NCBI GenBank assembly: GCA_024278215.1
Contig: JAJRTR010000174.1
Coordinates: 23,489 to 87,488, forward strand
Source of the DNA: a bacterium
GTDB taxonomy: Bacteria > UBP15 > UBA6099 > JAJRTR01
Direction: 5' to 3'
Length of the DNA: 64,000 nt
The notes beneath the pieces were generated by a model, which saw only the letters and a list, made by a program, of their open reading frames with translations, searched no databases and had not been told where the DNA came from. Shown here one piece after another: positions 4,752 through 54,869 of this stretch (position 1 is the stretch's first letter; each line of letters starts with the position of its first letter). The translations under genes were made by a program, and so were the position numbers.

Positions 4752-4847
4752 ATTTCCTTATCCGGTCGAGACCGATTCTTTATTATAGTTTTAATAAGAT
4801 CACGATATCGGGCCTTGTTTTGACGAATCGAAAAACATTACTGTACC

Positions 4848-12524: not shown

Positions 12525-12549
12525 TGATTGCCGGGAGGCAAATTGTATT

Positions 12550-13974: not shown

Positions 13975-14065
13975 CGAGATAATGAAATTTGAAATATGTG
14001 TTATACTAAATCGTAGCGGAAGTTATGATTTTCGCACGTAAAATCTTTCAAGGGAGTACAGAATA

Positions 14066-14383
14066 ATGGCAACATTAAATCTTGGTGGAAAAGAAGTAGA
14101 AATTGACGAAGATGGCTTCATCCAGGACCCTGAAGTATGGGACGAAGATGTAGCAATAGACCTTGCCGCCACTGAAGGCGTCGACGAATTGGGCGAAGAC
14201 CATTGGAAACTTGTCCACTATCTGCGAGATTATTACCTGAAATTCGGGATCGCCCCGATGATTCGCAAACTCTGCAAAGAGACAGGATTCGATCTCAAGT
14301 ATGTTTACGAGATGTTCCCGTCCGGACCGGCCAAAGGTGCCTGCAAAGTAGCAGGACTGCCCAAACCCACAGGATGCGTCTGA
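14066..14383 (+). CDS. dsrC: DsrC (TusE/DsrC family) with the two conserved C-terminal cysteines
   Basis: 105 aa ending '...GACKVAGLPKPTGCV', the DsrC hallmark. 'DPEVWDEDVA', 'HWKLVHYLRDYY'. Confidence 0.85.
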   Translation: MATLNLGGKEVEIDEDGFIQDPEVWDEDVAIDLAATEGVDELGEDHWKLVHYLRDYYLKFGIAPMIRKLCKETGFDLKYVYEMFPSGPAKGACKVAGLPKPTGCV

Positions 14384-14540: not shown

Positions 14541-14746
14541 TATCTTACGACTGAAATGCTACGCAGGATGGTAAAGAGATGCTGAAAAGAGATCGCTGAA
14601 AGCTGGAACTTCCAGTTACAGGCGTTTCCAAGGTAGACCTTTGGAATGATGAAACTCTGTGTGCCGTGCTCAAACCGCATTTGTTTGGGCACGAAAATGA
14701 GGCCTGTTTGGTTTCGGCTTTGCCGGTTAGGGGATTCTTTGTAGTG
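14541..14746 (+). repeat. Repeat family 2, copy 1 (~205 bp, conserved hairpin-containing 3' half)
   Basis: 5' 'tatcttacgactgaaatgctacgca.gatggtaaaga' and 3' 'gatgaaac..tgtgtgccgtgctcaaaccgcatttgtttgggcacgaaaatg.ggcct.tttg.t.cggctttgccgg.ttagg' are shared with 28761-28997. Confidence 0.65.
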
Positions 14747-14867
14747 CTTAACTTATGCGAATTCAGATATTTTGTATGAATTTCGGGGACATGACTGGAA
14801 TGCGCCCTTTAATTCCGGATTGTGTCCCCAGGAAATTCAGCGCATGTTTCAAAAACGCACAGTCATA

Positions 14868-15047
14868 AGAGCCGATTGCAAAATTATGTTCGAAGCGAGG
14901 TCGAGCGAAATTGTTCAGAGCAAGGCTGAGGTGTAAAATCCTCGCAGGCGTACTTGTAGAGTACATCGAGGAAGATTTTGCGCCGACAACGCAGCTATAG
15001 ACAATAACAGCCGACCGCAGCAGAATCATAATTTTGCAATCAGCTCT
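14868..15047 (+). repeat. MITE-like repeat family 1, full copy (~180 bp) with 17-bp terminal inverted repeats
   Basis: Starts 'agagccgattgcaaaat' and ends 'attttgcaatcagctct'. Near-identical copies at 45760-45940 (direct) and 20413-20596 (inverted). Confidence 0.7.
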
Positions 15048-15147
15048 TATGTAGTGTTTAAACATGTTAAAAATACTGAATGCCGAATATTTGATGCTGT
15101 TCCATGCTGGTGTTATAATTCCCGTGAATTCATGAGGAAAATCTTTT

Positions 15148-18074: not shown

Positions 18075-19292
18075 TCAACTTTCGATCATTTCCATAAAAC
18101 CCTGCAAGCGTGTCAGGAGTTGCCCCTCGGAGTAATTGCGGCTGTCGACACAGTCCACATCGAGGTTTATCATCGGCACCCCGATCTTCGCAAGGTCCGA
18201 TTTGATGATCTCACGCACACCGCAGTTCTGGCGGCATCCCCAGTGCGAAGGATTAACAGCACCGTCGATTGCATAGTCTTCGCATAACTTCTTCAATATA
18301 TCTATCCTGTGCCCGACTTTTCCGTTCAGCGGGTGTGAGATCAATCGTATGGCAAGCGCCTCGAGCGGCCTGTCCTCGTCCATATCATCCCAGTAGATGT
18401 AGTTAAGTTCATCAATTACAATCTTCGCGTTGTAGTTTTCCTGCAGGTAGTCGATGAGTTTTGTCTTATACTGAATGCGGTTCTGGACCCAGAGGAGCCG
18501 GATGTCTTCCTTCGGCAGGTCGGCGCAACCGTTTTTCAAGTGCTGCTTCGCTTCGTCGAGGAAAACCTGTGCGACTTCGACACCTTCCTTTGTTCCCAGC
18601 AGCAGCGCGAATATTATCTGAAAATTCTTCAGAGTGTCGCTTGTTATCGGTGCGGGCTTTTGCGTGCAAAGTTCATACAATTCACGAATTATCCGTGTCG
18701 CTTCATTCGAGTAGCGAATCGACTCCTTCATTCTGTCCGGGTCGTATTTTTTGCCTGAAAATTCTGTGATATAATCGATCATACCTCGAAATTGCTTAAC
18801 GAGATAATCGGTTTTTTCCCTTGTGACGGGAGGATAGGGTATGTCGATGACAAAAGTTTCGAGCCCGATATTTTCGCCGAGATTCAGAATAGTTTTCAGT
18901 CCGCCGTCGCAGGGTGCCGTTGCGCCTATGAGGAGTTCCGGCCTGCCGATAAAACTGTCGAGCGCGGCGCCGACAAGGGCTCTGTGATATGCGCAGCCAT
19001 CGGGTGAATATCCGAACCGCTCGGCTTTCCGGAGAAACTCCGGTGCCTGGCCTGTGCCCGCGAGCATCGCGCCGATATACTCGACATAGACCGCGCCCAC
19101 ATCCATAGCCTGGAATATCTCGAACGGCATGAACACGCCGGTCCACGCGCTCGCATATTTTTTGTCGAAAAGCTTCCGGCCAATCCTGGCTGTTTCATAG
19201 ACAAGTAATCGGCGGGCGGTTTTCTTATCTTTCAGTTTCTTTTCAAGCGCGTCGACTACACTGTCGAAGTAAATTTCAATTGGTGTTGTCAC
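18075..19292 (-). CDS. 2-hydroxyacyl-CoA dehydratase family subunit (HgdB/HadC/BcrB-like)
   Basis: 405 aa with conserved Cys positions of the HgdB-like Fe-S dehydratase beta family ('ATAPCDGG', 'HWGCRQNC'). 17-bp overlap with the partner gene upstream. Confidence 0.65.
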   Translation of the reverse strand: MTTPIEIYFDSVVDALEKKLKDKKTARRLLVYETARIGRKLFDKKYASAWTGVFMPFEIFQAMDVGAVYVEYIGAMLAGTGQAPEFLRKAERFGYSPDGCAYHRALVGAALDSFIGRPELLIGATAPCDGGLKTILNLGENIGLETFVIDIPYPPVTREKTDYLVKQFRGMIDYITEFSGKKYDPDRMKESIRYSNEATRIIRELYELCTQKPAPITSDTLKNFQIIFALLLGTKEGVEVAQVFLDEAKQHLKNGCADLPKEDIRLLWVQNRIQYKTKLIDYLQENYNAKIVIDELNYIYWDDMDEDRPLEALAIRLISHPLNGKVGHRIDILKKLCEDYAIDGAVNPSHWGCRQNCGVREIIKSDLAKIGVPMINLDVDCVDSRNYSEGQLLTRLQGFMEMIES

Positions 19293-20394
19293 GTGGTATC
19301 GTCCCCCTGGTTTCTTTCAGCATCTCGATAAATGCCTGCACCCGTGTCGCTGCCTGGCCGGCACCTTGCGAATAGTCGCTTTCGAGAAACAGCGCCTTCA
19401 CGTTCATTTCGTCGAGCGCCGTCCTGAGGCGCGGCACATCGTACAGGTGCGTGTCGCAGAATTTCAATGTGTAGACTATCACCCCGTCGGGGTCCTGATG
19501 CGCGACAAGTTCTTTAACTACATCCACAGCAGTTTTCGATGCGGCCATACGCGAGCAAGGTGATTTCGTCAGATATGCTCTCGCCAGTGATCTGCAAAAC
19601 GGTTTGTCCGGTCTGGGCTCCGGAATATTCCAGAAACGGCGGCCCGGGCATACCTCGTCCATCATAACGTGCCCGCCATATTTCTCGACAAGTCGCAGGA
19701 AACCGGGGTCGTCCATCATATTGCCGTAAAGCAACAATCTTGGTCCGACGGGAAACTCCCTGTACTTTATTATCGACTCCTCCTCGTCGAGGAGTTTCAG
19801 CGCGAGCGGCGCGGGCATACGCAGAACCTGCAGCATGACTTCCATCACATAGGAACCTTTCACCTTCGGCGGTTGTCTGCGCCGCGCACCGTCATAACCT
19901 CTGAGCCGCGCACGCAAATACCTGTACAGATCCATCGCGTCAAGTAATTTTTTATCGTCTATTTCTTTTTTGAATGTCGTCTCTATCCAATTTTTAAGTT
20001 CGTCGATTTCACCTGCGAATCTCTCGATATGTTCATCACCATCTTTCTTGGGTACCTGAAGCAGGAAAACCGGTATGCCGGGCTTTCTGCTTCTGACAAT
20101 TTCGTATAGACGCCTCTGTGCGTCGCAGCCGTTTGTCAGGACGAGCGCGTCGAGGAAATCGAGCGTGCCCGATTCGAACTCATCCACCAACGACTTGATG
20201 AACGGGCAAATATTTGTGTGCATCAGAGAATCACCCAACGATGTGGGGCCGTGTGCGCCTGAAATTCTCACAGGTGTCAGTTCCGCTGCCTCGAATATTT
20301 CGAGCGGTGTGTATGTGCAGAACCAGCCTACTGCCGGTCTGCCGTAAGATTTTATCTTCTTCATTTCTTTTTCAGTAAATTGTGTTCCGGCCAT
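19276..20394 (-). CDS. 2-hydroxyacyl-CoA dehydratase family subunit (HgdA/HadB/BcrC-like)
   Basis: 'WFCTYTPLEIFEAAELTPVRI', 'ICPFIKS', 'TNGCDAQRR', 'KFCDTHLYD'. The tracked ORF extends to 20532 through a MITE copy. The Met at 20394 ('MAGTQFTEKEM') is the likely start. Confidence 0.65.
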   Translation of the reverse strand: MAGTQFTEKEMKKIKSYGRPAVGWFCTYTPLEIFEAAELTPVRISGAHGPTSLGDSLMHTNICPFIKSLVDEFESGTLDFLDALVLTNGCDAQRRLYEIVRSRKPGIPVFLLQVPKKDGDEHIERFAGEIDELKNWIETTFKKEIDDKKLLDAMDLYRYLRARLRGYDGARRRQPPKVKGSYVMEVMLQVLRMPAPLALKLLDEEESIIKYREFPVGPRLLLYGNMMDDPGFLRLVEKYGGHVMMDEVCPGRRFWNIPEPRPDKPFCRSLARAYLTKSPCSRMAASKTAVDVVKELVAHQDPDGVIVYTLKFCDTHLYDVPRLRTALDEMNVKALFLESDYSQGAGQAATRVQAFIEMLKETRGTIPRDNTN

Positions 20395-20412
20395 CTTGTC
20401 CTCGCTTCCTAT

Positions 20413-20596
20413 AGAGAGCCAATTGCAAAATTTCGATTCGGCTGCGGTCGGCTGCAATTGTCCATAGCCGCGTTGTCGGCACAAAATCATCCTCAACGTA
20501 CTCGGCGAGTTCGCCTGCGGGGGATTTTGCACCTCCGCCTTGCTTCTGAAAAATTTCGTTCGGCCTCGCTACGAACATAATTTTGCAATTGGCTCT
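20413..20596 (-). repeat. MITE-like repeat family 1, full copy in inverted orientation
   Basis: The reverse complement aligns end to end with 14868-15047 and 45760-45940, including both terminal inverted repeats. Confidence 0.7.
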
Positions 20597-20635
20597 AAAG
20601 TATTTTCTGCATATTATAGCAACTCCGAGTGAAAT

Positions 20636-23339: not shown

Positions 23340-23642
23340 TCATTTTGACTTCAACTGCGCTTCCAGTTCGGCAATGCGCCGATTCGCGGCCTCAAGCTCG
23401 CGCTTGAGTCTGATAATCTCCTTGACGCCTGCGAGATTCACACCATCCTCTCGGGTAAGCTTCCTTATTTCTCTCACATCGTCGAGATCGCGCAGGGAAT
23501 AGAGTCTCTGCTGCGTATCGGTTCGCTTAGGCTGAATTAGTCCTTTGCGCTCATACATTCTGAGCGTCTGCGGGTGTGCTCCGAGCAGCTCGGATGCCAC
23601 CGAAATCACATAAACAGCCTCTTCATACAAGTGGAGTTCCAT
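23340..23642 (-). CDS. MerR-family transcriptional regulator (HspR-like)
   Basis: HTH '[39 protein letters not shown]' followed by a coiled-coil '[22 protein letters not shown]'. Confidence 0.75.
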
Positions 23643-23876: not shown

Positions 23877-24146
23877 AACAGCATTGGACTCAAGCTTTTG
23901 TAAATAATATACTGAATTTATGCGTTTTTGTAAATGGTAATTGTATTTCCGGGAACATCCGGAATTAAATGGCAAATTCCGGTCATGTCCCAGAAGTTTA
24001 CAGGTAATATTGAAAAACATATAAGATCAGATAATTTTACAATCGGCTCTCCTGATAGATATTTTACCAGTTTACTTGACAAAAAGAGTAATACATTTAA
24101 AATACCAGTAAAACGATAAAGTTTATGATAGACATGGGTTTAGTCT

Positions 24147-24632
24147 ATGAAGATCAACACACGTGCAAGGTACGCGCTAAGACTCATGATTGACATGGCG
24201 CTGAATACGACTCCGGATAAACCTCTCAATCTCAAGGATATATCAGAGAGGCAGGGTATATCTAAAAGGTATCTAGGCCAGATTATCGTTTCACTCAGGA
24301 ACAATTCACTTGTAAAGGGAATGCCGGGTAAGAGTGGCGGTTACATTCTGGCACGCAAACCCGAGGAAATAACTATCAGGAGAATATTTGAGGCTGCTCT
24401 AGGCCCGATAAATATGGTCGATTGCGTTATGAATCCTGAAAGTTGCATCAAGTCGGATTATTGCGAATGCAGGCCTGTGTATGAGTTGATAAACAGCAGG
24501 GTAACGGAGTCGCTGAGTGAATTCACACTCGCGGACCTCGCGCTCGCGTCGAAAAATGCCGGGCACAGAGCGATTCAGGATGATGCACAGGTTGATTTCG
24601 GAATAGACCTGTGCAGTTCACCCGGCAAATAG
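24147..24632 (+). CDS. Rrf2-family (IscR-like) transcriptional regulator
   Basis: 'RARYALRLMIDMA', HTH 'LKDISERQGISKRYLGQIIVSLRNNSLV', Cys ligands 'CVMNPESCIKSDYCECR'. Immediately upstream of dsrMK. Confidence 0.8.
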   Translation: MKINTRARYALRLMIDMALNTTPDKPLNLKDISERQGISKRYLGQIIVSLRNNSLVKGMPGKSGGYILARKPEEITIRRIFEAALGPINMVDCVMNPESCIKSDYCECRPVYELINSRVTESLSEFTLADLALASKNAGHRAIQDDAQVDFGIDLCSSPGK

Positions 24633-24732
24633 ACTGTAGGCGACATATTTATACTTTCATGCCGGTTTGTTCATGGAACCGGATCAGGTGAATTTTTAAA
24701 TAAATGGAAAAATCAAATTAAGACAGGAGGCT

Positions 24733-25677
24733 TTGATGGGACCTATACTGCACCTATTGACCTACGTATGTATGATCGTTTTTGTTGTGGCGGTTGTGCA
24801 TAAATTCAACGAGTACAACAAAATGCCGATGCATCTGCGATGGGAACTCTACCCGGTTGCCCACGAGGGGAAGAAGGCGAGCTATGGCGGTTCGTATTTT
24901 GAAGAAGTCGACTGGTGGGAAAAAGAACGCACCGTAGACATGGGTACGGAAATGAAGCAGATGTCGCAGGAGATTTTATTTCTTGCCGCCGTGAAGGAAC
25001 ACAACCCGAAACTGTGGCTTCGGACATTTCCGTTTCATTTCGGCATGTACAGCCTGATCGGTTTTCTTATGCTTCTTATAGCGGGGGCGCTGCTGGGTGT
25101 GGCCGGTGTCGATATGAGCGGAGGCGGCTTCGGAACTGTGGTGGGCACACTGACAGCCATCGCAGGCTTTGCAGGCGCTGTGCTCGGCGCAATCGGTGCG
25201 CTCGGACTGATCGCGCGCAGGCTTTTCGACGAAGACCTCAAGGACTTCACAAAACCGTCGGATATTTTCAACCTTGTTTTCCTGCTGTCGGTTTTCCTGC
25301 TTATGGCGGCAACAGGAGCGTCCGATCCCTATTTCACCGGACTTCGCGAATATGTTCAGAGTATTATCACTTTCAATATAAACTACGTTCCGTCGAACCC
25401 GGCTGCTGTCGGAGCGATCGCGCTGGCATCGCTTGTGGTCGCATACATTCCTCTCACGCACATGGCGCACTTTGTCGTTAAATATTTCACCTACCACAAC
25501 ATCCGATGGGACGACAGGCCCAACGTGCCCGGTAAGGACCCGATGGGCGATCAGATTGCCGAAGTTCTTCAGTATGAAATAACATGGGCTGCGAGCCACA
25601 TAAACCCAAACGGCACGAAGAAGACCTGGGCCGAAGCAGCCACGGAAAATCCAGAAGAGTTAAAGGAGAGCAAATAA
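24733..25677 (+). CDS. dsrM: DsrM-like NarI-type membrane cytochrome b
   Basis: 314 aa, 5-6 TM with conserved His ('VVHKF', 'PLTHMAHFVVKYFTYH'). Directly precedes dsrK with a 1-nt gap. Confidence 0.65.
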   Translation: MMGPILHLLTYVCMIVFVVAVVHKFNEYNKMPMHLRWELYPVAHEGKKASYGGSYFEEVDWWEKERTVDMGTEMKQMSQEILFLAAVKEHNPKLWLRTFPFHFGMYSLIGFLMLLIAGALLGVAGVDMSGGGFGTVVGTLTAIAGFAGAVLGAIGALGLIARRLFDEDLKDFTKPSDIFNLVFLLSVFLLMAATGASDPYFTGLREYVQSIITFNINYVPSNPAAVGAIALASLVVAYIPLTHMAHFVVKYFTYHNIRWDDRPNVPGKDPMGDQIAEVLQYEITWAASHINPNGTKKTWAEAATENPEELKESK

Positions 25678-25678
25678 C

Positions 25679-27298
25679 ATGGCAAAACCCAAAGACACTA
25701 AACTTTCGCTGAACGATTTTGGGAAACCATGTGACCGCCTTGCGCACATGAACCCTGAAAACCTGATGCCTATGTCCAGGCCGCTCGACTGCCGGGAGCC
25801 CGAGTGGAGTCCTCTCAAGGAGGAGACAAAAGAAAAGTACATGGCATCTCTCGACGACACTCTTGTGCTGAATATTCCCAGACCTCAGAGCAAACGAGAA
25901 GAGCAGGAACTTGTCAGAAAATTTCTTTCCGGTGTGGAAAAGTTGTTTCAGAAGAACAATAACTGGACGTTCCTCCAGCCGCTGGTTTCTACGGTCGAGC
26001 ACTGTGCAAAATGCCAGACATGCAGCGATTCGTGCCATATTTATGAATCGAGCGGAAAGCATGATATGTACCGGCCTACATACCGCTCGGAGATATTCAG
26101 GCGCATCTACCAGGATTACATTCATCCTTCGGGCAGGTACCACAAAACGTGGAAAAACGGTGGTGAGATAAAACTAAGCTGGCTGACGGTGGCCCGTCTG
26201 GGCGAACTCTCCTACAGGTGTAATATATGCCGGCGTTGCGCCCAGTCGTGTCCGATCGGCGCGGATAATTCCGTAGTGGCGCGTGAGATTCGCAAAGTTT
26301 TCAGTCAGGAACTCGGCATCCATACCGTCGAACTGCACGACAACGGCTCGATGCTTCAGCTCAAGGTCGGCTATTCCACGGGAATGAATCCTGAGATCGT
26401 GAAAGACAATATCGAGTTTATCGACGAAGACATGAGCGAAAAAACAGGTATGAAACTCGAGACGCCATGGGATAAGAAAGGTGCCGACATCCTGCTGATC
26501 CACAATGCGGGCGAGATAATGGCATGGCCTGAAAACATAGGCGCGTTCACGGCTATATTCCAGAGCGCAGGCCTCAACTGGACGATGTCCAGTGAAGCGC
26601 TCGGCTACGACAACATCAACTACGGACTCTTCTACGACGACGTGCAGTTTGCGCGTGTAGTGATCAAGCATTTCCAGTGTGCGCAGAAGCTGGGTGTGAG
26701 GAAGATAGTTTTCGGCGAGTGTGGACACGCGACAAAGGCGGCGATGATTATCGCCGACCGCATTCTTACCGGCGACTTGAATATTCCGCGCGAAAGCTGC
26801 TTCCCGCTTTTGAAACAACTCGTCGAGGGCGGCTCTCTGAAGCTCGATCCTTCCAGCAATAACTTTCCGGTCACTCTGCACGATCCGTGCAATCTCGTCC
26901 GCCTGATGGGCATCGTCCAGCCGCAGCGCGACGTTATAAAAAAGATTTGCCCGAAATTCCGCGAGATGACGCCCCACGGCGTGAACAACTACTGTTGTGG
27001 CGGCGGAAGCGGGTTCGCCATCCACTCGGGGCACAACTTCGAAGAGTGGCGTTTCAAGATTTCAGGACGCAAGAAACTTTCGCAGATTCTCAATGCCTTC
27101 AGCGACTGCATCGAGCCGGAAACAAAGAAGTATGTCTGCGCCCCATGCTCGAACTGCAAAGGCCAGATACGAGATATTCTCGGGCATTACAATCTCTGGA
27201 ACGATGCGGGCATCACTTATGGAGGGCTCGTCGAGCTTATCGTCAACGCTATGACGGATGTGAAGCCGAACTATATCGACTGGGACGAAATCATCTGA
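25679..27298 (+). CDS. dsrK: DsrK-like iron-sulfur CCG-domain protein (HdrD-like)
   Basis: Two ferredoxin motifs 'CAKCQTCSDSC' and 'CNICRRCAQSCP'. CCG-domain cysteines 'PCN...YCCGGGSG' and 'CAPCSNCKG'. Confidence 0.8.
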   Translation: MAKPKDTKLSLNDFGKPCDRLAHMNPENLMPMSRPLDCREPEWSPLKEETKEKYMASLDDTLVLNIPRPQSKREEQELVRKFLSGVEKLFQKNNNWTFLQPLVSTVEHCAKCQTCSDSCHIYESSGKHDMYRPTYRSEIFRRIYQDYIHPSGRYHKTWKNGGEIKLSWLTVARLGELSYRCNICRRCAQSCPIGADNSVVAREIRKVFSQELGIHTVELHDNGSMLQLKVGYSTGMNPEIVKDNIEFIDEDMSEKTGMKLETPWDKKGADILLIHNAGEIMAWPENIGAFTAIFQSAGLNWTMSSEALGYDNINYGLFYDDVQFARVVIKHFQCAQKLGVRKIVFGECGHATKAAMIIADRILTGDLNIPRESCFPLLKQLVEGGSLKLDPSSNNFPVTLHDPCNLVRLMGIVQPQRDVIKKICPKFREMTPHGVNNYCCGGGSGFAIHSGHNFEEWRFKISGRKKLSQILNAFSDCIEPETKKYVCAPCSNCKGQIRDILGHYNLWNDAGITYGGLVELIVNAMTDVKPNYIDWDEII

Positions 27299-27319
27299 AT
27301 CGGTCGATTGTAATGTTAT

Positions 27320-28774
27320 GTGAAGGAGAAGCATGTGATTCCCGAGCAGGTCGACAACTGGATTCGCGAGGAGATTTTCGACCGTGTACCCGTCAGTATA
27401 TGCGTGATTGACAGGGACTTCGGAATAGTCAAAGCGAACGAATATTTCCGTCGCAAATTCGGCAGGATACGGGGCAGGCGTTGTTACGAGGCTTACAAGG
27501 GTAACGACGCCCCCTGCGACGACTGCCGGGCGATGAAAACATTCAGCGACGGCGAAGTGCGCGTAACTCAGGAACTGGGCATAGACCGCGACGGGAATCA
27601 TATTCTATACGTTGTCAGGCTCGCGCCGCTCGTCGAGAAAGACGGCTCGATCCCCTATATCATCGAGATGGCCACGGATATTACCGAAGTTAAATTTCTC
27701 CAGAACCAGCTCCGCGAAAAACAGGAACGCTACCGGCTGCTGTTCGACGAAGTTCCATGTTACATAACGATACAGGACCGCGATTTCAAACTTCTCGAAA
27801 CGAACCGGATGTTTAAAGATCATTTCGGAGACCACAAGGGAGAACACTGCTACGAAGTCTACAAACAACGCACAGAACAATGCTACCCCTGCCCCGTTGC
27901 GCAGACGTTCGAGGACGGGAAAGTTAATCGCAGTGAGATGGTGGTAACGTCTAAAGCAGGCGACACTATAAATGTTGTGTCGTACACAGCACCTATCAGG
28001 GACGCGGCCGGCGACATCATGGCCGTCATGGAAATGTCGACGGACATCACGCAGATACGGCAGTTGCAATCCCAGTTGACCAGTCTCGGCCTGCTCATCG
28101 GATCGATATCTCATGGGATAAAGGGCCTGCTCATGGGGCTCGACGGCGGCATCTATGCGATGGAAACGGGTTTTGAAAAGAACGACCAGCAAAAAATCGC
28201 CAAGGGCTGGGAAATGGTGAAGCGCAATGTCGGTCGTGTGCGCAGCATGGTTCTCGACATCCTTTATTATGCGAAAGAGAGGGCATCTGTTCCTGAAACG
28301 ATAGAAGCGCACGTGCTTGCCGGGGAAGTCGCGGAGATCATGCGGCCCAAAGCTACTACATTCAATATCGTTTTCAACACCGACATTCATGATATCTCCG
28401 GAGATATGGAAGTCGACTACAAGGCGGTTCGCTCGATGCTCGTCAATATTATTGAAAATGCTTTCGAAGCTTGCAGAGTCGACAAGGAGAAAACCATACA
28501 CAAAGTCGATTTCATTTTGCGTGAATCTGGCAATGATGTGGTTTTTGAAATAGTCGACGACGGTATCGGTATGGACAGGGACACAAGGAATAAGATATTC
28601 ACATTGTTCTTTTCGACAAAAGGGACTTCGGGAACCGGACTTGGCCTCTTTATTTCCAATAAGATCGCGCGTGATCATGGAGGAAGCATCGAGGTCGAGT
28701 CGACACTCGGCAAAGGCTCAAAGTTCACAATAAGACTGCCGAGGGATATGCCCTCCGCAGTATCTTACGACTGA
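27320..28774 (+). CDS. Sensor histidine kinase with two tandem 4-Cys PAS domains
   Basis: PAS1 Cys set 'SICVIDRD ... RRCYEAYKGNDAPCDDC'. PAS2 Cys set 'PCYITIQDRD ... HCYEVYKQRTEQCYPC'. H-box 'SISHGIKGLLMGL'. HATPase_c 'DDGIGMD', 'GTGLGLFISNKIARDHGGSIEV'. Starts 21 nt after dsrK. Confidence 0.8.
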   Translation: MKEKHVIPEQVDNWIREEIFDRVPVSICVIDRDFGIVKANEYFRRKFGRIRGRRCYEAYKGNDAPCDDCRAMKTFSDGEVRVTQELGIDRDGNHILYVVRLAPLVEKDGSIPYIIEMATDITEVKFLQNQLREKQERYRLLFDEVPCYITIQDRDFKLLETNRMFKDHFGDHKGEHCYEVYKQRTEQCYPCPVAQTFEDGKVNRSEMVVTSKAGDTINVVSYTAPIRDAAGDIMAVMEMSTDITQIRQLQSQLTSLGLLIGSISHGIKGLLMGLDGGIYAMETGFEKNDQQKIAKGWEMVKRNVGRVRSMVLDILYYAKERASVPETIEAHVLAGEVAEIMRPKATTFNIVFNTDIHDISGDMEVDYKAVRSMLVNIIENAFEACRVDKEKTIHKVDFILRESGNDVVFEIVDDGIGMDRDTRNKIFTLFFSTKGTSGTGLGLFISNKIARDHGGSIEVESTLGKGSKFTIRLPRDMPSAVSYD

Positions 28775-28997
28775 AATGCTACGCATGATGGTAAAGAAAT
28801 GATGAAAAAGAGATCGGTGAACGCGGAGCGTTCAGTCCCTGCGTTCCGGGTCGGAATCAGGATCGATGAAAAACCGGTGTGGACGAGTGTGAGTGTGATG
28901 ACTGTGGGAATGATGAAACCATGTGTGCCGTGCTCAAACCGCATTTGTTTGGGCACGAAAATGCGGCCTTTTTGTTCCGGCTTTGCCGGGTTAGGAA
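28761..28997 (+). repeat. Repeat family 2, copy 2 (~237 bp), overlapping the kinase stop codon
   Basis: Same 5' and 3' conserved blocks as 14541-14746. The TGA of the kinase lies inside 'tatcttacgactga'. Confidence 0.65.
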
Positions 28998-29033
28998 TAC
29001 GGTAAATATACGGGTGAAAGATGGAGAAGTTCG

Positions 29034-29432
29034 ATGCAGGATAAGAAAAAGATTTTCATTATTGACGACGAGCCGGATACCGTTGACTTTCTGTCAATGA
29101 TATTCGAGGATGGCGGTTTCGACGTTATTTCCGTTACTAATCCCGACAGGGCGGTCGAGATCATCGCTGCTGAGAATCCGGACCTGATAACGCTCGATAT
29201 TGTCATGCCGCACAAAACCGGCGCGAAAATATATAACGAACTACGCACTAAAATCGAATACGCGAATATCCCCGTTATTGTCATTTCCGGCGTTGAACCC
29301 GGAGATTACATCCACAACATATCCGTCAATGATTCGACTGAAAACTCGATAGCAGGCCCCTGCGCTTTCATTGAAAAACCCATCGATAAATCTTTTCTTT
29401 TGAACACTGTCCGCAAGCTGCTTTCCTGCTGA
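29034..29432 (+). CDS. Single-domain response regulator (receiver only)
   Basis: 'IFIIDDEPD', 'LITLDIVMPHKTG', 'PVIVISGV'. Confidence 0.8.
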   Translation: MQDKKKIFIIDDEPDTVDFLSMIFEDGGFDVISVTNPDRAVEIIAAENPDLITLDIVMPHKTGAKIYNELRTKIEYANIPVIVISGVEPGDYIHNISVNDSTENSIAGPCAFIEKPIDKSFLLNTVRKLLSC

Positions 29433-31063: not shown

Positions 31064-34000
31064 ATGCAAAAATCTAATTTGAAACATTTTGTTGTTGCAA
31101 TTTTCATGATCTGTGCAATCTCTGTGCATGCATCGGCTTCCGCCGATTTTACGTCGAGTTGGACAAGTATCGAAACGAATGAAAGCACGTGCTCGGCGTG
31201 GGGCGATTATGACGGGGACGGCGACCTGGACGTTGTAGTCGGCGACGCAAATACCGGCACTATGCTTTACAGCAACGCGGGCGGCGCGTCTTTCAGTATC
31301 GTGTGGCAGTCGGAGGACGCCGACCTTGTCGTCTCACTTGCCTGGGGCGATTACGACCGTGACGGCGACCTGGATATACTTGTCGGCAACAATCCCGGAA
31401 ACAACAGGGTTTACAGCAACAGCGGCGGCGGAGTTTTCACGCTCGCCTGGACTTCCAGCAGTGTCAGGAGAACAGTCAGGGCGGAGTGGGGAGATGCGGA
31501 CGCCGACGGTGACCTGGACTTTCTCGCGGGCGTCTACGATGAACCTGCAAGGGCTTTCAGGAACACGGGCGCGAGCCAATTTGAATTGATATGGAGTTCG
31601 CAGGAATCCGATCCGACTACATGTATCGACTGGGCCGACGCCGATGCGGACGGCGACCTCGATTTTGTAAAAAGTGCGAACAGCGCCGTCGACCGGGTGT
31701 ACCGGAATGAAGGCGGTTCGGCCTACACTCTTATGTGGTCTTCCGCAAGATCGGATAAGGCGTATTTCACCGAATGGAGCGATTACGACGGCGACGGCGA
31801 CCTTGATTTCGCGGTCGCCAATTACGATGAAAAAGACCGTGTCTACAAAAACTCCGGCAACTGGTATTTCGATATGGTCTGGGCTTCGGCGACCGACTCT
31901 CCCTCAATCGGACTGGCATGGGGCGACTACGACGGCGATGGTGACAGCGATTTGCTCTTCGGCAACTACGCTGCAAGCAATAATGTTGTTGCTTACGCCG
32001 GTTCCGATAATTTCACTGATTCATGGTCTTCGCCGGAAGCCGATTATACATACCAGGTGACATGGGCCGACTACGACGGCGACGGCGATCTCGACCACTT
32101 CGTTTCAAACATCAGCAGCCAGTCAAACCGACTCTACAAGAATAATCTTTCCATATCCAATTCACCGCCTGCGGCCCCGGTGATTACCGGACAGCCGGAC
32201 GGTCTGCCCGGACTCATCACGCTTAGCTGGTCCGCCGCATCCGACGACATCACACCCGCTGTGGACCTCACTTACCAGGTGCGCGTGGGCACTTGCTCTG
32301 GGTGTGGCGGCATAATATCGGGCGCTTTCGCGCCTCCTTTCGGCAATTCGCGACAGACGGAATTCCATAAACTTAATATCCAGGACGACGGTACGTATTA
32401 CTGGTCAGTGGCCGCCGTCGATAGCGCTGGGTTCTCGACCTCGACATGGTATGTCGAGGACTCGTTCACAATATCTGCTCCGAGCGGAACTCCGTACCAG
32501 TCTATATGGACCGGTCCGTCGTCTGACCAGACAACAGCTATTGCGACCGCCGACTACGACGACGACGGTGACCTCGATTTTATTGCCGCCAATGACTCTG
32601 AAGTCAATACAGTGTACAGGTATAACGGTAACAATACTTTCACCGCCGTGTGGTCGTCTCCGGAAACAGACGCCACGAACGACGCGGCATGGGCCGACTA
32701 CGACGGGGACGGCGACCTCGACCATGCTGTCGCCGACAACGGCGCGAACCGCGTCTACTCCAAAACGGACGATTACAACTTCAGCCTCGTCTGGTCATCG
32801 ACGGAAACCTCCAACTCACTCGCGACAGCCTGGGGAGACTACGACCGCGACGGCGATCTCGATTTATTTGCGGGCAACGTCGGCGCGAACCATCTGTACA
32901 GAAACAATTCGGACGACACATTTACTCTCGTCTGGACTTCGACAGAAACAGACACGACTTCGGGCGCGGTATGGCTCGACGCCGACGCCGACGGCGTTCC
33001 GGACATTTTCTGCGCCTCCGACGGCACTTCCGACAGGCTCTACTTGAACAACGGTGACGACACTTTCACTCTCGCATGGTCATCGACTCAGACAGACGCG
33101 ACAAAAGACGCGGCGGCGGCGGATTATGACGGGGACGGACTCGTGGACATTTCCGCGCCTGCGGTCGGCGCGACACAAAACAGGCTCTACTCAAATAACG
33201 GCGACGGCACTTTCACTCTCGCATGGTCATCGACTCAGACAGATGAAACATATTCGTGCACATGGGGCGATTACGACGGTGACGGCGACTGGGACCTGCT
33301 TGCCGGCAACAGCGGCGTCAACAGGGTATACGCGGGCGACGGCGCGGGCGGCTTCACGCTCGAGTGGTCATCCGCTGAAGGCGAAGTCACTTACGCTGCC
33401 GCATGGGGCGATGTGGACGGCGACGGCGACCTTGATATAATCTCCGGTAACAACACTTCGGCCAACAGGCTATATCTTTACACCTCCGATATCTCGAACC
33501 TCAACCCGGCCGCGCCCGTTTTAGTCGCCGGGAGCAACGCGACACTTTCCGGCGCTACCGTTTCCGTTACTTTCAACTGGAACGCTGCCGTCGACGACAC
33601 GACCGCCCCTGTCTCGATGATGTACCATCTGCGTGCCGGCACATGTTCCGGTTGCGACGACATCGTTTCCGGAGCTTACGCTTCACCAGTTCCCAATGTC
33701 GGCGCGACAACTTCCATTTCCATCGTTTTCGATGCTACCGGCACATACTACTGGTCTGTTGCTGCCATCGACAACACTTCTCTAAGTGCGTCATCATGGA
33801 GTTCGGAGGATAGCTTCGAGATTATCGAGCCCACGGGAACACAAACGCCGTTCGAGTCGATATGGACCGGAACGGATATCAACCTGACTCGAGATGCCGC
33901 GTGGGGCGACTACGACGGCGACGGCGATCTTGATTTCTTTGCAGCGAACTATACGCAGGGAAATTTCGTATACCGCAACGACGGCAGCGCTACTTTCAAT

Positions 34001-37000
34001 AAAGTTTACGAAGACAACCTTTTCTCATATACAACATCCGGTGCGTGGGGTGACTACGACGGCGACGGCGATCTCGATTTGCTGTTCTCAAACTATAATG
34101 AAAGCAATTACGTTTTTAAAAACACGGGAAGTGACGATTTCGTGTCGGCATGGTCCACAACGCAGGCGAATTCAACAAACGACGCCGAGTGGGGCGATAT
34201 GGACGGCGACGGCGATCTCGATTTCATCGCGGGCAATGACGGCCAGTCGATTTTAGTTTTCAGCAACAACGGATCGGGCGGTTTCACGTATGGCTGGGGC
34301 TCGACGGAAACGAATAATACGAGTTCTATTTCAGTGGTCGATTTCGATAAGGACGGTGACCTCGATTTCATCGCGGTGAACAACGGACAGTCCGATATTA
34401 TCTACGATAACGGCGGAGGCGGCACTTTCAGCGTCGCCTGGACGTCTGCTGAAACAGACAGCGGCAGCGGCGGCGCGTGGGGTGACTATGACGGCGACGG
34501 CGACTACGACATAGCCGTAGCCAACAACACGCAGTCGAATCGCGTTTACTCGAACGCCGGGGCCGCAAACTTCACATCGGTCTGGACATCCACGGAGGCG
34601 GATGCGTCGCACACTGCCGCGTGGGGCGACTACGACGGCGACGGCGATCTCGACCTGCTTTTCGGCAACTATTATACGACTTCCGACACCGACAGAGTCT
34701 ACACCAACGCAGGCGGCGACAATTTCCCGCTGGGCTGGTCGGCGACAAATCAGGAATACACGCGCGCGGCGGCCTGGGGCGATTACGACGGCGACGGCGA
34801 TCTCGATTTCATCGCGGCCAACGAAGACGGCTCCGACAGGATTTACAGAAACAATCTTTCCATCTCCAACACCGCTCCGCCCGCTCCCACACTGACGTTA
34901 ATTGACGACGGTGACCCGGGTACGGTCGTTTTTCAATGGGCTGCCACTTCCGATGACATCACCCCCGACAGCCTGCTTGCATTCCAGTTGCGCGTCGGCA
35001 CGTGCACGGGCTGCGACGACATTATAAGCGGCGAATTCGCGCCTCCTTTTGTCAACATGGGCGCTACCGGCTCCTACCCGATGATACTCGGCAACGGCGA
35101 TTATTACTGGTCCATTGCTTCTGTCGACACCACAGGTTTCTCTGTTTCCTCGTGGAGCACAGAAGACGACTTTCACCTCGAACATATACCGGCAGTCCCA
35201 TTCGAGTCCACATGGCAAAGCACCGAAAGCAACAGGACGGCGGCACTCGCATTGGGCGATTTCGACGGCGACAGCGACCTCGACCACATTGCTGCCGACT
35301 CCGATTCGATTCGCCTTTACCGCAACACAGGATCGTATTCTTTCACGCTCGCCTGGTCATCGTCGTCGATGACAAACAACATGGATGCCGCGTGGGGCGA
35401 CTACGACGGCGACGGCGATCTCGATTTCGCTGTTTCCACCGGCTCGGGCGGTTACGTGTCGGTCTATGAGCAGACAACTTACGCCGCCTTTTCATCCGTA
35501 TGGGCTTCGTCTCAAACAGATAAAACATACAGTGTCGCGTGGGCCGACTGCGACGCGGACGGCGACCTCGACCTTCTAACCGCCAATCTCGCGGACGGCT
35601 CGACTGGTTCGAACAACAGGGTATACCGTAACGAAGGCCGCGGCGACTTTGTCGTCAACTGGACATCTGCCGAGGCCGACATAACTTATGATGCCGCGTG
35701 GGGCGATTACGATGGCGACGGCTACAGGGATATTGTCGCGGGAAACGACGGCGCGAACAGGATTTACCGAAATGTCGCATGTGACTACTTCACCATCGTG
35801 TGGACTTCCGTCGAAAGCGACAGGACGACCGGCGTCGCGTGGATGGACTACGACGGCGACGGCGACCTTGATTTCGCCGCGGGCAGCGCGGACGGCAACG
35901 ACCGTGTTTATAATAACGACGGCGCGGGCGGTTTCTCCGCCGTGTGGACTTCCACCGCCACATCGACGACTTCATCAGTCGCATGGGGCGACTACAACGC
36001 CGACGGCTACCCCGATCTCGCTTCAGTCAACAACAGTTCTATCGCCGATTCGGAACATGTTTACGGCAACAACGGCGACGATACCTTTTCGACAGCGTGG
36101 AACTCGCCTCTCGATGAGGAATCGCAGGACGTCGCATGGGGCGACATCGACGGCGACGGCGACCTCGACCTGCTCATAGCTTCCGGCGGCGACACATCGG
36201 CGGATGCGAATATCCTGTATGTCAATTACGTCGAGCCGGCGAACAACGCACCTACTACTCCGTCCGTAACCGTGGTTCCAGACGGTTTCACCGGCTATGT
36301 CGACCTGCAATGGACTGCTTCAACTGATGATGTTACTCCGTCTGATGAAATCCGCTACATCGTCCGGGCCGGTACTTGCTCCGGTTGCAACGACATCATT
36401 TCCGGCCTCTATTCGCCGCCTCTGACCAATGCCGGTACGGCAACTAGTTACAGGGTACATATCGCCGGTGCGGATACATATTACTGGCAGGTTAAGGCGA
36501 TAGATATGGCAGGCTTCCGCGAATCAGGCTGGTCGAACGCCGATGATTTCGTCTTGACAGACCGTTTCTCATCCGCATGGACCGGAAGCGCATATTACAA
36601 TATTGAAGATGTCGCGTGGGGCGACTACGACGGCGACGGCGACCTCGACATAGCTGCGGCGGTAAACGGTACGCCCAACCTTGTTATCGAAAACAGCGGT
36701 GGCGGCAGTTTTTCGACGGTTTGGTCTTCTTCCGAAAGCGATTACACACGCTCCGCCGCCTGGGGCGACGCGGACAACGACGGCGATCTCGATATTCTCG
36801 TGGGCAACACCGATTCGGCTTCGGGCGGCGACCAGAACCGCGTCTATTCCAACAACGGCGACGGCACGTTTACTGTCACATGGTCCACCTTTGAAATGAA
36901 CCGTACTTACGATGCTGTGTTTACAGACTGCGACGCGGACGGCGACCTCGATATTGTCGCCGCTAATGAATATGAAAACATAATTTACACCAATAATGGC

Positions 37001-40000
37001 GGTAGTTCGTTCACTTCAAGTTCATTGTCTTCACACCAGGAGCGGACACGGGCGCTATCTCCCGCCGACTTCGATGCCGACGGCGACTTCGACTTGCTCG
37101 AAGGCAACTACGGCGCGCCCAACAGGGTATTCAGAAACGACGGCTCGGGCAATTTCTCCGAACTGTGGGCCTCTTCCGGCAGTGAATATACCTCTGCTGT
37201 CGCATGGGCCGACACAGACGGCGACGGCGACCTCGACGCTTTCTTCGGCAACAGTTACGTGGGTGCACTGAACTATATTAATGTTAATGACGGCGCGGGT
37301 TCGTTCTCCGCCTCATGGACATCGCGCGACGCCGACGAAACTTATGACGCCGCGTTCGGCGACACAGACGGCGACGGGGACCTCGACCTGATTACCGCCA
37401 ACAGCGATTCTGATTCCACCCGCGATAATTACAGGCTCATCCGCGTTTACTCGAATTCCGGCGGCAACTTGTTCGCGGCATCGGCAAACATGGGAGCCGG
37501 CGATTATGCCGTTGCTGTCGCGCTCGGCGACTATGACGGCGACGGCGACCTCGATATCCTCGAAGGTTCGAGCGACGGCGGCGACGACATGCCTGTTCGT
37601 GTGTATATGAATAACATGGACCCGTCGAATGCCGCTCCATCCGCGCCGTCTGTTATCAAAACAGACAACCAGGTTCTCTCAGCCGCTACTTCTCCGATCT
37701 CCATAGCGTGGTCCGCACCGTCCGACGACATCACAGTCACCGCGCTCCTGTCATATCAGTTACGTATCGGCACATGCCCCGGCTGCAGCGATGTTATGTC
37801 GGGCGCTTTCGCGCCTCCCGGCGGCAATATCGGCGCGACGACTGCTGTCAATATCAACATGTCCGATTCTGGCACGTACTACTGGTCGGTCGCGGCGGTG
37901 GACAACACAGGCTTCGCGACAGGCGCATGGTCGGACGAGGAATTTTTCGCCGTTTCACTTCCCCTGTTCGATACAGGTTGGACGAGTCCCGAAGGTGGAA
38001 CATGCAGGGATGCCGCGGCAGGTGACTTCGACGGCGACGGCGACCTCGATATTGCATCGAGCTTCGACGCGCAGAATATGGTTTATGAGAATAACGGCAG
38101 TGGCTCTTTCAGCGACGCATGGACATCCGCCGAGTCTGAAAACACGATGGAAGTCGCATGGGGCGACTACGACAACGACGGCGACCCGGACATACTTGTC
38201 GCCTCCGCAAACGGGCCTGCGAGGATATATAAAAACACTGGCGGCACCTTCTCTACTGCATGGTCATCCATTATGAGCGTGCAGGGCGGCGGCGTCTCAT
38301 GGGCCGACCTCGACAACGATGGCGACCTCGACTTCGCCGCCTCGAGCTACGGCATAAACAATCTCGTCTACAGAAACGACGGCGGCGATTCTTTCACCCT
38401 TTCATGGCTTTCCAGCGACACAGACAACACAACTGACGTCGAATGCGCCGACTTCGACAATGACGGCGACAGCGACATTGCCGCTGCGAATGAGTCCGGA
38501 CCTGTGAAGCTTTACGCAAACGACGGCGCGGGCAGTTTCATTGCTGTCTGGACATCCTCCGACACCGGCTACACAAGTGGGATTTCGACCGGAGATTACG
38601 ACGGTGACGGCAATTTGGATATGCTCACGGTGGCTGGTTCTTCATACTACAACAGAGTGTACCGGGGCGGTGGCGGCGGCACATTCACAGCCGTGTGGAC
38701 CGCTGGAGAGGACGGTCCGTTTTCCGGCGGCGCGTGGGGCGACTACGACGCGGACGGCGACCTCGATTTCTTCGTCTCCTACAGCGGCACAGACAGTCGT
38801 GGCAGCCACGTTTATCGCAATACAGGTAGTGATTCCTTCAACCTCGTGTGGGCGTCGCTGAATGATGACGCGTCGTACAGCGCCGCCTTCGGCGATTTCG
38901 ACGGCGACGGCAATATCGATCTGCTCTCGGCGAATACCGGCGTAAGAACATGGACGAATATGTCCACCGTATCGAACAGCGCGCCCGCGCAGCCGACTGT
39001 AACAGCCGTCGGCGATCAGGAATTCCACATCTCGGCCACTCCTGCCGTAACACTGTCATGGACCGCGCCCTCCGACGACTACACACCCTCGAATTCACTC
39101 ACATACCAGGTGCGAGTCGGCACTTGTTCGGGATGTAGCGACATCGTCTCCGACACTTTCGTGCCGCCGTGGGGCAACGCCGGCCCTTCGACGTCATACA
39201 CTTTCAACGCGACCGCATCCGGCACTTATTACTGGAGTGTATCCGCCGTGGACACTTCGGGGTTCCTCGTGGGCGCGTCGAGCGCGGAGGATGTCTTCGA
39301 TGTTTCATTTTCGATGCTCGGCACAAGGACACCGTTCGATTACTCGTGGTACGGCAGCGCGTCCGACTACAGCAGCGGCAGCGCCTGGGGCGACTACGAC
39401 GCCGACGGCGACCTCGACATCCTGATTTCAGACGCCGGCGCGTCCGCCGGCAACAGGATATACTCGAACGACGGCGGCAACACCTTCACGCTCGCGTGGA
39501 CGGCGACTGAATGGAACACAACGGAAGCCGCCGCCTGGGCTGACTACGACGGTGACGGCGACCTCGACGCTGTTTTCGTTTCAGGCGGTTCGGGCGAGCC
39601 GAATTATGTTTACCGAAATGTTGGCGCGGGCGGCTTCGTAGTCGGTTGGACTTCGACGGAAACCGAGCCTTCGCAGGCCGTTGCCATCGGCGATTTCGAC
39701 GGCGATGGCGATCTTGATATCTTCGTCGGAAATAACAGCGCGTCTGTTCCTGACCGCGTTTATAAAAATGTTTCCACAGGTTTCACCACCGCCTGGACTT
39801 CGTCTTCATACTACACGACGCGCGCCGTGGATATGGCAGACTACAACCTCGACGGTCGCCCCGACTTACTGCTCGGCAACAGCGGCTCTGCCATGGAACC
39901 GATTGTCATATATTCGAACAAAGGCGGCGAGTGTTTCACCGAAGCCTGGACTTCGTCCGAGCAGGAATACACTTCCGCCGTCGAGTGGGGCGACTACGAC

Positions 40001-43533: not shown

Positions 43534-43933
43534 TATTCTTCACCTCGAAGTCATATATATAGCAGGATTCACCCGCCAATCCAATAAAAATCGAAAAACA
43601 AATCCCGACCCGGCATAGCCGGAACCAGAAAGGTCGCATTTTTCACCGATCTCTTTTCAACATTTCTTTACCACCTTGCGCAGGATCTCATTATTATTCA
43701 ATCCAGTTGATAAATACCACCTCACTGTGCAAGTATATCTGAAACCGTAAACTATTAAGGATATTTTTATTAACAAAACTTTTCTTATCACTGTATACGC
43801 GGCACTGTGCGTCACTTTCTTTTTTTCACATACCTCTCTTGCAGACCGGTGCGCAGAGGGCGCATGGGAGTGTTCGGAAGACGGATATACGCTGAAAACA
43901 TGTACGAAAGGCACATGGATCACGCGGGAGTGC

Positions 43934-45538: not shown

Positions 45539-45759
45539 ATCTGAAATTCCGCTTTTCATTTATACATCAATGAAACAAAAGCCTTCGCGGCGGGAACTTA
45601 TATATATATTTGTTTGTCTGTATTTGATGCCACATTATTAACTGAACTTGTGCGTTTTTATAAAAGGTAGTGCCATGGCAACATAGAAAAAATGTAAGAT
45701 GGGGTAGCGTAAAAACTATTAAAGTGTAGGGCGGGGGCACCGTACCCAGCCTCAACTTG

Positions 45760-45940
45760 TGAGCCAGTTGCAAAATCATGTTCGAAGCGAGGTCGAGCGA
45801 AATTGGTCGGAAGCAAGGCGGAGGTGCAAAATCCCCGCAGGCGTACTTGTAAAGTACGTCGAGGATGATTTTGTGCCAACAACGCAGCTGTTGCCAATTG
45901 CAGCCGACCGTAGCCGAATCAGAATTTTGCAATTGGCTCT
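45760..45940 (+). repeat. MITE-like repeat family 1, full copy (direct orientation)
   Basis: 'gagccagttgcaaaatcatgttcgaagcgaggtcgagcgaaatt ... agaattttgcaattggctct', colinear with 14868-15047. Confidence 0.7.
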
Positions 45941-54842: not shown

Positions 54843-54869
54843 TGGAAGCCTCCATTTAATAAGGTAATT

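Follow-up and report, generated by a model that had tools for sequence, protein, structure and literature searches.

Why a small membrane module for sulfite-reduction electron transfer should be followed by a cysteine-rich histidine kinase and a receiver-only regulator is the question raised by positions 24147–29432 of the 64,000-nucleotide stretch of bacterial contig JAJRTR010000174.1 analysed here (the window). The module, DsrMK, carries out the final step in sulfate and sulfite respiration, which is energy-coupled. Much anoxic sulfur and carbon cycling is driven by this respiration, and to our knowledge the regulation of its final step has not been described. Five genes occupy the interval on the plus strand, in the order Rrf2 regulator, DsrM-type cytochrome b, DsrK-type CCG protein, two-PAS kinase and receiver-only regulator. 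All five were recovered as open reading frames (ORFs) with the positions and domains given in an earlier note on this DNA, which had read them as a candidate redox-sensing circuit. The interval is best read as one functional cassette, set in a locus for dissimilatory sulfite reduction in an uncultured bacterium, and the probability that the five genes form a single conserved functional unit is put at roughly 85%.

The coupling of kinase and receiver to the cytochrome b/CCG module, as pointed out in the earlier note, is real and strongly conserved in orthologous loci. A homologue search with the kinase gave more than 5210 matches at E ≤ 1e-10, and relatives about 50% identical over 95% of the length are spread over many phyla. 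The earlier note had proposed to look for kinase homologues next to dsrMK in other genomes. The four closest orthologues looked up (59–66% identity) all stand in the same five-gene order amid unrelated flanks, and chance neighbourhood was rejected on this ground. The sole similarity between the flanks of orthologous loci is a gene pair for the 2-hydroxyacyl-CoA dehydratase D-component (HGD-D) near the cassette, located at 18075–20532 (minus strand) in the window and at 10579–13374 in the closest cassette (L001). The latter also carries a 42-aa HmcD-like ORF (Pfam DVU_0533) and an extra receiver just upstream of Rrf2 (547–1096), as well as two receivers after the kinase; the HmcD-like ORF and extra receivers hint at descent from an Hmc-type operon.

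The same association was seen in a kinase-centred sample of 80 metagenome contigs. Of the 37 contigs that offer 2.5 kb or more of upstream sequence, 32 encode a DsrK/HdrD-type CCG protein no further than 4 kb from the kinase, and of the 55 with at least 500 nt on either side, 49 have a receiver within 700 nt. Three kinds of partner module were distinguished. The first is DsrMK-type, as in the window (5 loci). The second consists of Hmc-like operons with HmcF above its NCBI cut-off (10 loci), in the order cytochrome c, Fe-S protein, NrfD-type protein, HmcE, HmcF, universal stress protein, receiver, one-PAS kinase and Rrf2; in one of them (L150) HmcE and HmcF both exceed their NCBI cut-offs. In the third (22 loci), the CCG protein is HmcF/TmcB-like and its membrane partner HmcE/TmcC-like, and a macro-domain gene often precedes them. 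The third and first types flank a single kinase in several loci (L111, L137 and L152). In a metagenome-assembled genome (MAG) of Acidobacteriota (L007, CAVWDS010000002.1), the genes sat, macro, TmcC-like, CCG-receiver, kinase, receiver, dsrM, dsrK and aprA follow one another on one strand, so that the signalling set lies mid-cluster among sulfate-reduction genes. The macro-domain gene, typed by eye, was noted just upstream of the TmcC-like/CCG-receiver pair in 16 of the 80 loci (e.g. L092, L100, L111, L113 and L114).

The cytochrome b/CCG pair lies directly upstream of the kinase. The DsrM-type gene (24733–25677, with an alternative ATG start possible at 24736) encodes a membrane cytochrome b of the NarI family (Pfam Nitrate_red_gam 35.9, cut-off 22.9), and the DsrK-type ORF, encoding a cytoplasmic Fe-S protein, begins one base past its stop (25679–27298). 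For the latter, DsrK was the best NCBIfam match, ahead of TmcB (198) and HmcF (178), at a score of 313.7 that misses the cut-off of 400 (NF045796); the DsrM-like protein scored 21.2 against a cut-off of 300 (NF038037). These shortfalls speak for a paralogous module with another thiol/disulfide substrate, in which case the link to sulfite reduction would be coincidental. Several dsrMK-like copies are possible in sulfate reducers (PMC10861901), and the kinase family also accompanies Hmc- and Tmc-like modules, some of them in phyla without known dsr genes. The residues, on the other hand, are those of DsrK, whose hallmarks are a single CCG motif, a last ligand that is Cys or Asp, and a cysteine in the T/GECGH motif (PMC10861901). 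In 130 relatives, the two [4Fe-4S] motifs (C109/112/115/119 and C181/184/187/191) are 98–100% conserved and C348, within GECGH, is 100% conserved. The single CCG motif comprises C404, C439-C440-G, C490 and C493, the last being Asp in 5 of the 130. Overall, the cluster and catalytic cysteines are 94–100% conserved. In the DsrM-like protein, conservation across 64 orthologues reaches 95% or more for seven histidines (H34, H44, H102, H243, H246, H255 and H289), four of which would be the haem ligands.

Gene neighbourhoods bear on the same choice. A scan of species-representative genomes gave at least 578 DsrK relatives, and the best 80 (62–67% identity) were used as a DsrK-centred sample; they come from Acidobacteriota, Planctomycetota, Gemmatimonadota, Zixibacteria, Ignavibacteria, Chloroflexi, Poribacteria, Abyssobacteria and others. 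In 74 of these 80 genomes, the gene next upstream of the DsrK orthologue encodes a DsrM orthologue. Only 25 of the 80 loci have dsrA, dsrB, dsrN, sat or aprA within 8 kb, which counts in favour of a paralogue. Against this, the orthologues stand immediately upstream of dsrAB in three Acidobacteriota genomes (L031, L079 and L083), and beside sat, aprA, dsrN or dsrC in many genomes, dsrC being present in several loci. The window itself contains a block of dsrA, dsrB, a dsrN-like amidase gene and dsrC (10213–14380, plus strand) 10 kb upstream of the cassette, which is absent from the earlier note. The block lies outside the cassette and encodes the reductase together with DsrC, the substrate protein served by DsrMK. 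Its dsrA and dsrB score above their cut-offs (TIGR02064, 557.8 against 392.85; TIGR02066, 510 against 341.5), the dsrN-like third gene is CobB-type, and DsrC (Pfam DsrC 128.5) is full-length with both C-terminal cysteines in C-x10-C spacing. The closest match to the window DsrA that bears a name is from a Latescibacterota MAG (81% identity). No second CCG protein is present in the window. The claim in the earlier note of a minimal DsrMK, without dsrJOP in the window, was borne out insofar as tblastn of the window with HmcB-, HmcC- and cytochrome-type references found nothing, DsrJ itself not having been searched for. In combination, the conserved hallmark residues and the orthologues adjoining dsrAB led us to accept the dsrMK label despite the unmet NCBI cut-offs; by sequence the pair would be dsrMK of a divergent clade outside the curated models, and the paralogue explanation appears quite improbable.

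In the DsrK-centred sample, the next gene after dsrK encodes a receiver in 26 of 75 loci, and a kinase with the PAS cysteines described below (Cys-PAS kinase) is encoded within 8 kb in 22 of 80. Thus, the association of dsrMK with kinase and receiver is frequent, not obligatory. Upstream, Rrf2 was found in 8 of 80 and a MerR-type gene in 9 of 80. Where present directly upstream of dsrM in place of Rrf2 (among the nine L009, L017, L018, L050, L053, L092 and L111, several being Planctomycetota MAGs), this MerR-type regulator has a cysteine-rich C-terminal tail. A MerR gene of the window (23340–23642, minus strand) is without such a tail.

The kinase (27320–28774) starts with GTG 21 nt past the dsrK stop, the spacing given in the earlier note. 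It comprises two PAS domains (Pfam PAS_4/PAS_9 twice), a DHp helix and HATPase_c, and has no recognisable membrane segment, as expected of a soluble protein; its phospho-acceptor H265 in the DHp helix is invariant. Both cysteine strings quoted in the earlier note, CYEAYKGNDAPCDDC and CYEVYKQRTEQCYPC, were located in it. The spacing of about 33 residues between the first two cysteines had been misjudged, the actual values being x26 in PAS1 (C28 to C55) and x29 in PAS2 (C147 to C177). Likewise, of the two four-cysteine PAS domains claimed, only the second stood. PAS2 (residues 132–253; 27713–28078) has the full set C147, C177, C188 and C191, whereas PAS1 (residues 20–124; 27377–27691) has three conserved cysteines, C55, C66 and C69. 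The canonical first cysteine is replaced by V25 in the window PAS1 and its close relatives, and C28, three residues later, is lineage-specific and neither equivalent nor conserved; by its sequence, PAS1 would therefore be a three-cysteine site in this lineage.

Conservation of the cysteines in homologues, the condition on which the earlier note had made its proposal depend, was pronounced. Both refuting outcomes named in that note and open to computation, non-conserved cysteines and kinase homologues never adjacent to dsrMK, therefore left the proposal standing. Among the 120 best homologues, no PAS domain is without the triplet C-x10-C-x2-C, whether the protein contains 2, 3 or 4 such domains, and in an alignment of 30 sequences C55, C66, C69, C147, C177, C188, C191, H265 and C385 are invariant. 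Across 415 PAS copies the signature reads P-C-x29-C-Y-x-x-Y-K-x-R-x3-C-x2-C-P-V-x2-T-F, the first cysteine (P-C, 29 residues upstream) being present in 86%. For the candidate family marked by this signature, about 3,356 cluster representatives match at E ≤ 1e-10. Conversely, 48 of the 147 best cluster representatives contain PAS domains about 30% identical to PAS2 that lack the cysteines, and the set is therefore an added functional feature, dispensable for the fold. A second two-component pair of the window (5125–7553, minus strand) offers an internal contrast to the Cys-PAS kinase: its 720-aa PAS-GAF-PAS-HisKA kinase is without C-x10-C-x2-C, and a weak receiver-like match (31% identity over 87 aa) lies downstream.

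The AlphaFold model of PAS2 (predicted local distance difference test 94.9) has a canonical PAS fold, with the cysteines at the start of A-beta, at the start of E-alpha and in the loop before F-alpha. These elements presumably line the cofactor pocket, as in LOV and FixL. The matches to the model in Foldseek were all generic PAS domains for haem, flavin and other ligands (11–23% identity), which do not indicate a cofactor, and by sequence no solved structure matched the PAS pair at E < 0.02. The sets might be structural zinc sites, with the kinase sensing a small PAS ligand or a protein partner instead. Four cysteines including a CxxC pair are a classic zinc ligand set, the motif recurs unchanged in each of the 1 to 4 tandem PAS domains that a protein may have, as could be expected of a feature that stabilises the fold, and the searches of solved structures yielded no PAS domain with a metal at the corresponding site. 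However, the first cysteine is dispensable (missing in 14% of copies and in the window PAS1), a loss that structural Zn(Cys)4 sites seldom allow; the fold forms in related PAS domains that have none of these cysteines; the model would place them inside the ligand pocket and not on a surface knuckle; and the neighbouring genes encode Fe-S and sulfur-redox proteins. Three-cysteine Fe-S sites are, moreover, documented for PAS domains: OrpR of Desulfovibrio vulgaris holds a PAS [4Fe-4S] cluster on three cysteines (PMC8359166), and in the PAS kinase NreB, whose Bacillus licheniformis form senses sulfide, the Fe-S cluster is held by three or four (PMC13478379). A zinc site is thus considered unlikely. 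Given that three-cysteine variants occur, that the cysteines are placed in the pocket and that OrpR and NreB set a precedent, the cysteine sets most likely ligate an Fe-S cluster, through four cysteines in PAS2 and through three plus an exchangeable ligand in PAS1; zinc or reactive thiols are the less favoured options.

The last gene of the cassette (29034–29432; Pfam Response_reg 63.9) encodes a receiver with no second domain and, in particular, no DNA-binding domain according to Pfam. Its best NCBIfam match is NF045717 (DVU0259_DivK), at 101.5 under a cut-off of 160, and D11, D12, D55 and K115 are 91–100% conserved in 139 relatives. The earlier note had called this receiver an orphan. It is instead likely to be the cognate partner of the kinase, with the CCG subunit as the target suggested by fusion proteins. 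In the loci analysed, 30 CCG proteins bear a C-terminal receiver and are encoded directly upstream of the kinase, as part of the third type of module. When one of these fusions was used as query, all of its 120 best relatives (72–100% identity, 571–604 aa) contained both CCG and Response_reg; those with organism names belong to Ignavibacteria, Kapabacteria, Bacteroidota, Calditrichota, Zixibacteria, Acidobacteriota and 'Deltaproteobacteria', and they are annotated merely as 'response regulator' or 'Fe-S oxidoreductase/CheY-like'. The fused receiver shares its best family match, DVU0259/DivK, with the free receiver of the window, and the acidic pocket, phospho-Asp and Lys are common to both. 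That the free dsrK-adjacent receiver is a direct orthologue of the fused one was not borne out, as the groups are about equally distant (35–41% identity). The fusion argument consequently holds by family and not by orthology: receivers of this kind would act on a CCG protein, and in the window the receiver is a separate polypeptide of the same cassette.

In the window, kinase and receiver are separated by 259 nt, compared with 12–18 nt in three of four orthologous loci, and for this reason the gap is read, from the sequences, as suggesting an insertion. It is occupied by an intergenic repeat (28761–28995, end approximate). An exact 25-mer, TATCTTACGACTGAAATGCTACGCA, occurs at 14541–14565 and 28761–28785, where none is expected by chance, and longer alignments define a family of about 200 nt with further copies at 14541–14731, after dsrC, and at 43641–43690 (inverted and partial). 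Since the repeat begins at 28761, it supplies the last three codons of the kinase and its TGA, in line with the earlier note, which had the repeat provide the stop codon. No Rfam family matched anywhere in the window, and the repeat is therefore not a known RNA. A terminator inside it was also considered and dropped, as none was found on the plus strand. A second, unrelated repeat family is present at 4838–4917, 14862–15051, 20406–20601, 45754–45944 and 54864–54894; its units measure about 190 nt, are internally palindromic and resemble miniature transposable elements, and one copy overlaps the 5′ end of the long ORF at 19276–20532, whose true start may lie further downstream.

Upstream, the cassette opens with the Rrf2-family transcription regulator (24147–24632; Pfam Rrf2 112.7 bits; TIGR00738 114, cut-off 73.3). 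With a winged-helix domain and three C-terminal cysteines it fits the cluster-binding Rrf2 class (IscR/NsrR/RsrR type). The ligand set C93, C100 and C106 is conserved in 28 of 29 orthologues, and the specific equivalogs IscR, CymR, NsrR, RirA and SufR all score below their own cut-offs. A strong promoter-like site of sigma-70 type precedes the gene (24076–24126, plus strand; 11/12 in a consensus scan), consisting of TTGACA, a 16-nt spacer and TAAAAT, followed by the palindrome ATAAAGTTTAT (24116–24126). The five orthologous cassettes all have the −35 element TTGACA unchanged in their upstream regions. The palindrome occurs once in the window and is identical in L002, as spotted by eye in the alignment; an automatic inverted-repeat search of the window promoter detected no operator. 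The site is a candidate for the operon promoter together with the Rrf2 operator.

A conserved promoter with a palindrome ahead of Rrf2, and the presence of Rrf2 in 21 of the 80 kinase-centred loci as well as in the cassette, are what would be expected if control were purely transcriptional, with kinase and receiver starting a phosphorelay or modulating Rrf2 or another DNA-binding protein, and with adjacency reflecting co-regulation. Single-domain receivers are often phosphorelay intermediates. In D. vulgaris, rrf1 (a response regulator) and rrf2, downstream of hmc, regulate its expression (Keon 1997, as cited in PMC9338935 and bioRxiv 2023.11.02.564894). Yet the receiver lacks a DNA-binding domain, neither an Hpt protein nor a second kinase is encoded in the cassette, and Rrf2 is upstream in just 8 of 80 dsrMK loci. 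A very conserved family that fuses this type of receiver to a CCG enzyme is, furthermore, hard to square with a transcriptional role. Exclusive control of transcription therefore seems rather unlikely.

The preferred model, in which a redox- or sulfur-sensing kinase switches the docking of the receiver on DsrK while Rrf2 handles transcription, starts from what was observed: the gene content, the catalytic residues, the conserved cysteines, the synteny across phyla, and the fusion of the receiver to paralogous CCG proteins. DsrM and DsrK would constitute the minimal menaquinol-to-DsrC-trisulfide module, and Rrf2, kinase and receiver its dedicated control system. Rrf2, probably with an Fe-S cluster on C93/C100/C106, would control transcription from the conserved promoter before its own gene. 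The soluble kinase would read the cytoplasmic redox or sulfur state via the cysteine sets predicted to line the PAS cofactor pockets, and would phosphorylate the single-domain receiver. As the earlier note suggested, what it senses may be the redox state of the same electron-transfer chain. The receiver, lacking a DNA-binding output, could then dock on the DsrK-type subunit and tune electron flow from menaquinol to the DsrC trisulfide. Taken as a whole, this model is given about even odds; the identity of the cofactor, the signal, the phosphotransfer, the binding of receiver to DsrK and the sign of the effect are steps that we infer.

Several points weigh against it. A receiver or kinase was found within 8 kb in only 42 of the 80 DsrMK-type loci, and most loci in which dsrAB lies beside dsrMK have neither. 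The free and fused receivers, 35–41% identical, form separate subgroups. A sequence cannot reveal a cofactor, and a CxxC pair with two further cysteines fits zinc equally. Experimentally there is only the precedent of rrf1/rrf2 at hmc, and it concerns expression. In this particular genome, the inserted repeat may have altered the co-expression of kinase and receiver.

A bolder version of the model, which is possible but doubtful, makes the receiver a phosphorylation-switched regulatory subunit of DsrMK-type modules and the PAS cysteines a DsrC-like probe. The C-x10-C spacing of the kinase PAS domains is the same as that of the two redox-active cysteines of DsrC, and the PAS cysteines might act as a thiol, persulfide or Fe-S probe that is redox-cycled with the DsrC pool or by DsrK. 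If true, this would amount to a direct feedback loop from substrate state to enzyme activity, and a two-component system would govern how active the terminal step in sulfite respiration is, beyond how strongly its genes are expressed.

Two further features of the window lie apart from these subjects. A single ORF of 3835 aa (31064–42571, plus strand) contains FG-GAP-like repeats, with 20 matched stretches in the first 1500 aa; it is built of eight super-repeats of about 1.35 kb and has a G+C content of about 57%, against about 48–50% in the surrounding DNA. At the far end, 57788–61665 (plus strand) encodes a glycyl-radical enzyme (PFL-like, 990 aa) and its radical-SAM activase.

Compared with known systems, the pair resembles the DsrMK of DsrMKJOP, a menaquinol:DsrC-trisulfide reductase whose minimal module is DsrMK (PMC10861901). 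Both consist of a NarI-type cytochrome b and a CCG protein in which two [4Fe-4S] motifs and GECGH accompany one CCG motif. Encoding near dsrAB and dsrC is a further likeness, and a form without JOP is already known. The window pair differs in belonging to a divergent clade under the NCBI DsrK and DsrM cut-offs and, judging by the layout, in sharing a transcript with Rrf2, kinase and receiver. The receiver has the receiver-only build and intact phospho-acceptor residues of CheY, DivK and the NCBIfam DVU0259 family, although it falls under the cut-off of the latter. Literature searches for DVU0258 and DVU0259 returned nothing, and no described precedent was found for a respiratory CCG subunit as the target of a single-domain receiver of CheY or DivK type. 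The fusions suggest a testable mechanism for such a target, namely phosphorylation-dependent enzyme control.

For the kinase, the earlier note had invoked NreB. The two are alike in being cytoplasmic PAS histidine kinases with PAS cysteines, but NreB has one PAS domain, as opposed to two to four in the Cys-PAS kinases here, and a HisKA_3 core, for which the window kinase has no match in Pfam. NreB works in the NreBC system with NreC, a DNA-binding regulator, whereas the window kinase adjoins a receiver-only protein. The motif of NreB from Staphylococcus carnosus and B. licheniformis, C-x2-C-x11-C(-x2-C) (PMC13478379), also differs from C-x26/29-C-x10-C-x2-C in the window. A search among solved structures gave no significant match, though the set may not include the 2026 NreB entry. 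The resemblance consequently survives as a concept only and fails in motif order, spacing and sequence homology, so that the label of an NreB homologue was rejected. OrpR shares three conserved cysteines in the region of the PAS pocket, an anaerobic sulfate-reducing host and, as proposed for the kinase, redox sensing, in its case of redox potential; its triad is C52-x8-C61-x3-C65 compared with the C-x10-C-x2-C set of the window (PMC8359166), its output is a sigma-54 AAA+ activator and not a histidine kinase, and it has no link to a CCG module. NreB and OrpR are thus functional precedents for the Cys-PAS kinase, not relatives. On the level of concept only, the kinase also recalls Chloroplast Sensor Kinase/Hik2, an Fe-S histidine kinase that follows the redox state of a membrane chain, the quinone pool (PMC6949291).

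The nearest parallel in gene organisation is provided by the hmc and tmc operons. In D. vulgaris and Desulfococcus multivorans, the neighbours of tmc/hmc include genes for response regulators, histidine kinases and a universal stress protein (PMC5109826); there, too, a cytochrome b/CCG module (HmcEF or TmcCB, both DsrMK paralogues) stands beside a receiver, Rrf2, a stress protein and kinases, and the metagenomic Hmc-like operons found here carry a one-PAS form of the Cys-PAS kinase. The statement in the earlier note that such coupling is not a standard dsr locus feature is accordingly fair for classical sulfate reducers, with the qualification that similar regulatory genes have long been noted at hmc/tmc. 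What sets the window apart is that the signalling set is attached to DsrMK itself, an arrangement unreported in PMC9338935 and PMC5109826. The Cys-PAS signature and the receiver-CCG fusion are likewise unmentioned in the hmc/tmc literature searched, and neither the motif nor the fusion family was found described in the wider search, which covered literature outside subscription-only sources. The signalling set on DsrMK proper, the Cys-PAS signature and the receiver-CCG fusion family thus all appear to be new as far as the searched literature goes. The signature marks a large uncharacterised family of candidate Fe-S or thiol sensors and could be used for annotation. The roles of Hmc and Tmc are still debated. 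The comparison ties Dsr, Hmc and Tmc modules to one signalling set, in which a Cys-PAS kinase and a DVU0259-type receiver are often joined by Rrf2 or a universal stress protein. This link spans many phyla, including recently recognised dsr-carrying lineages.

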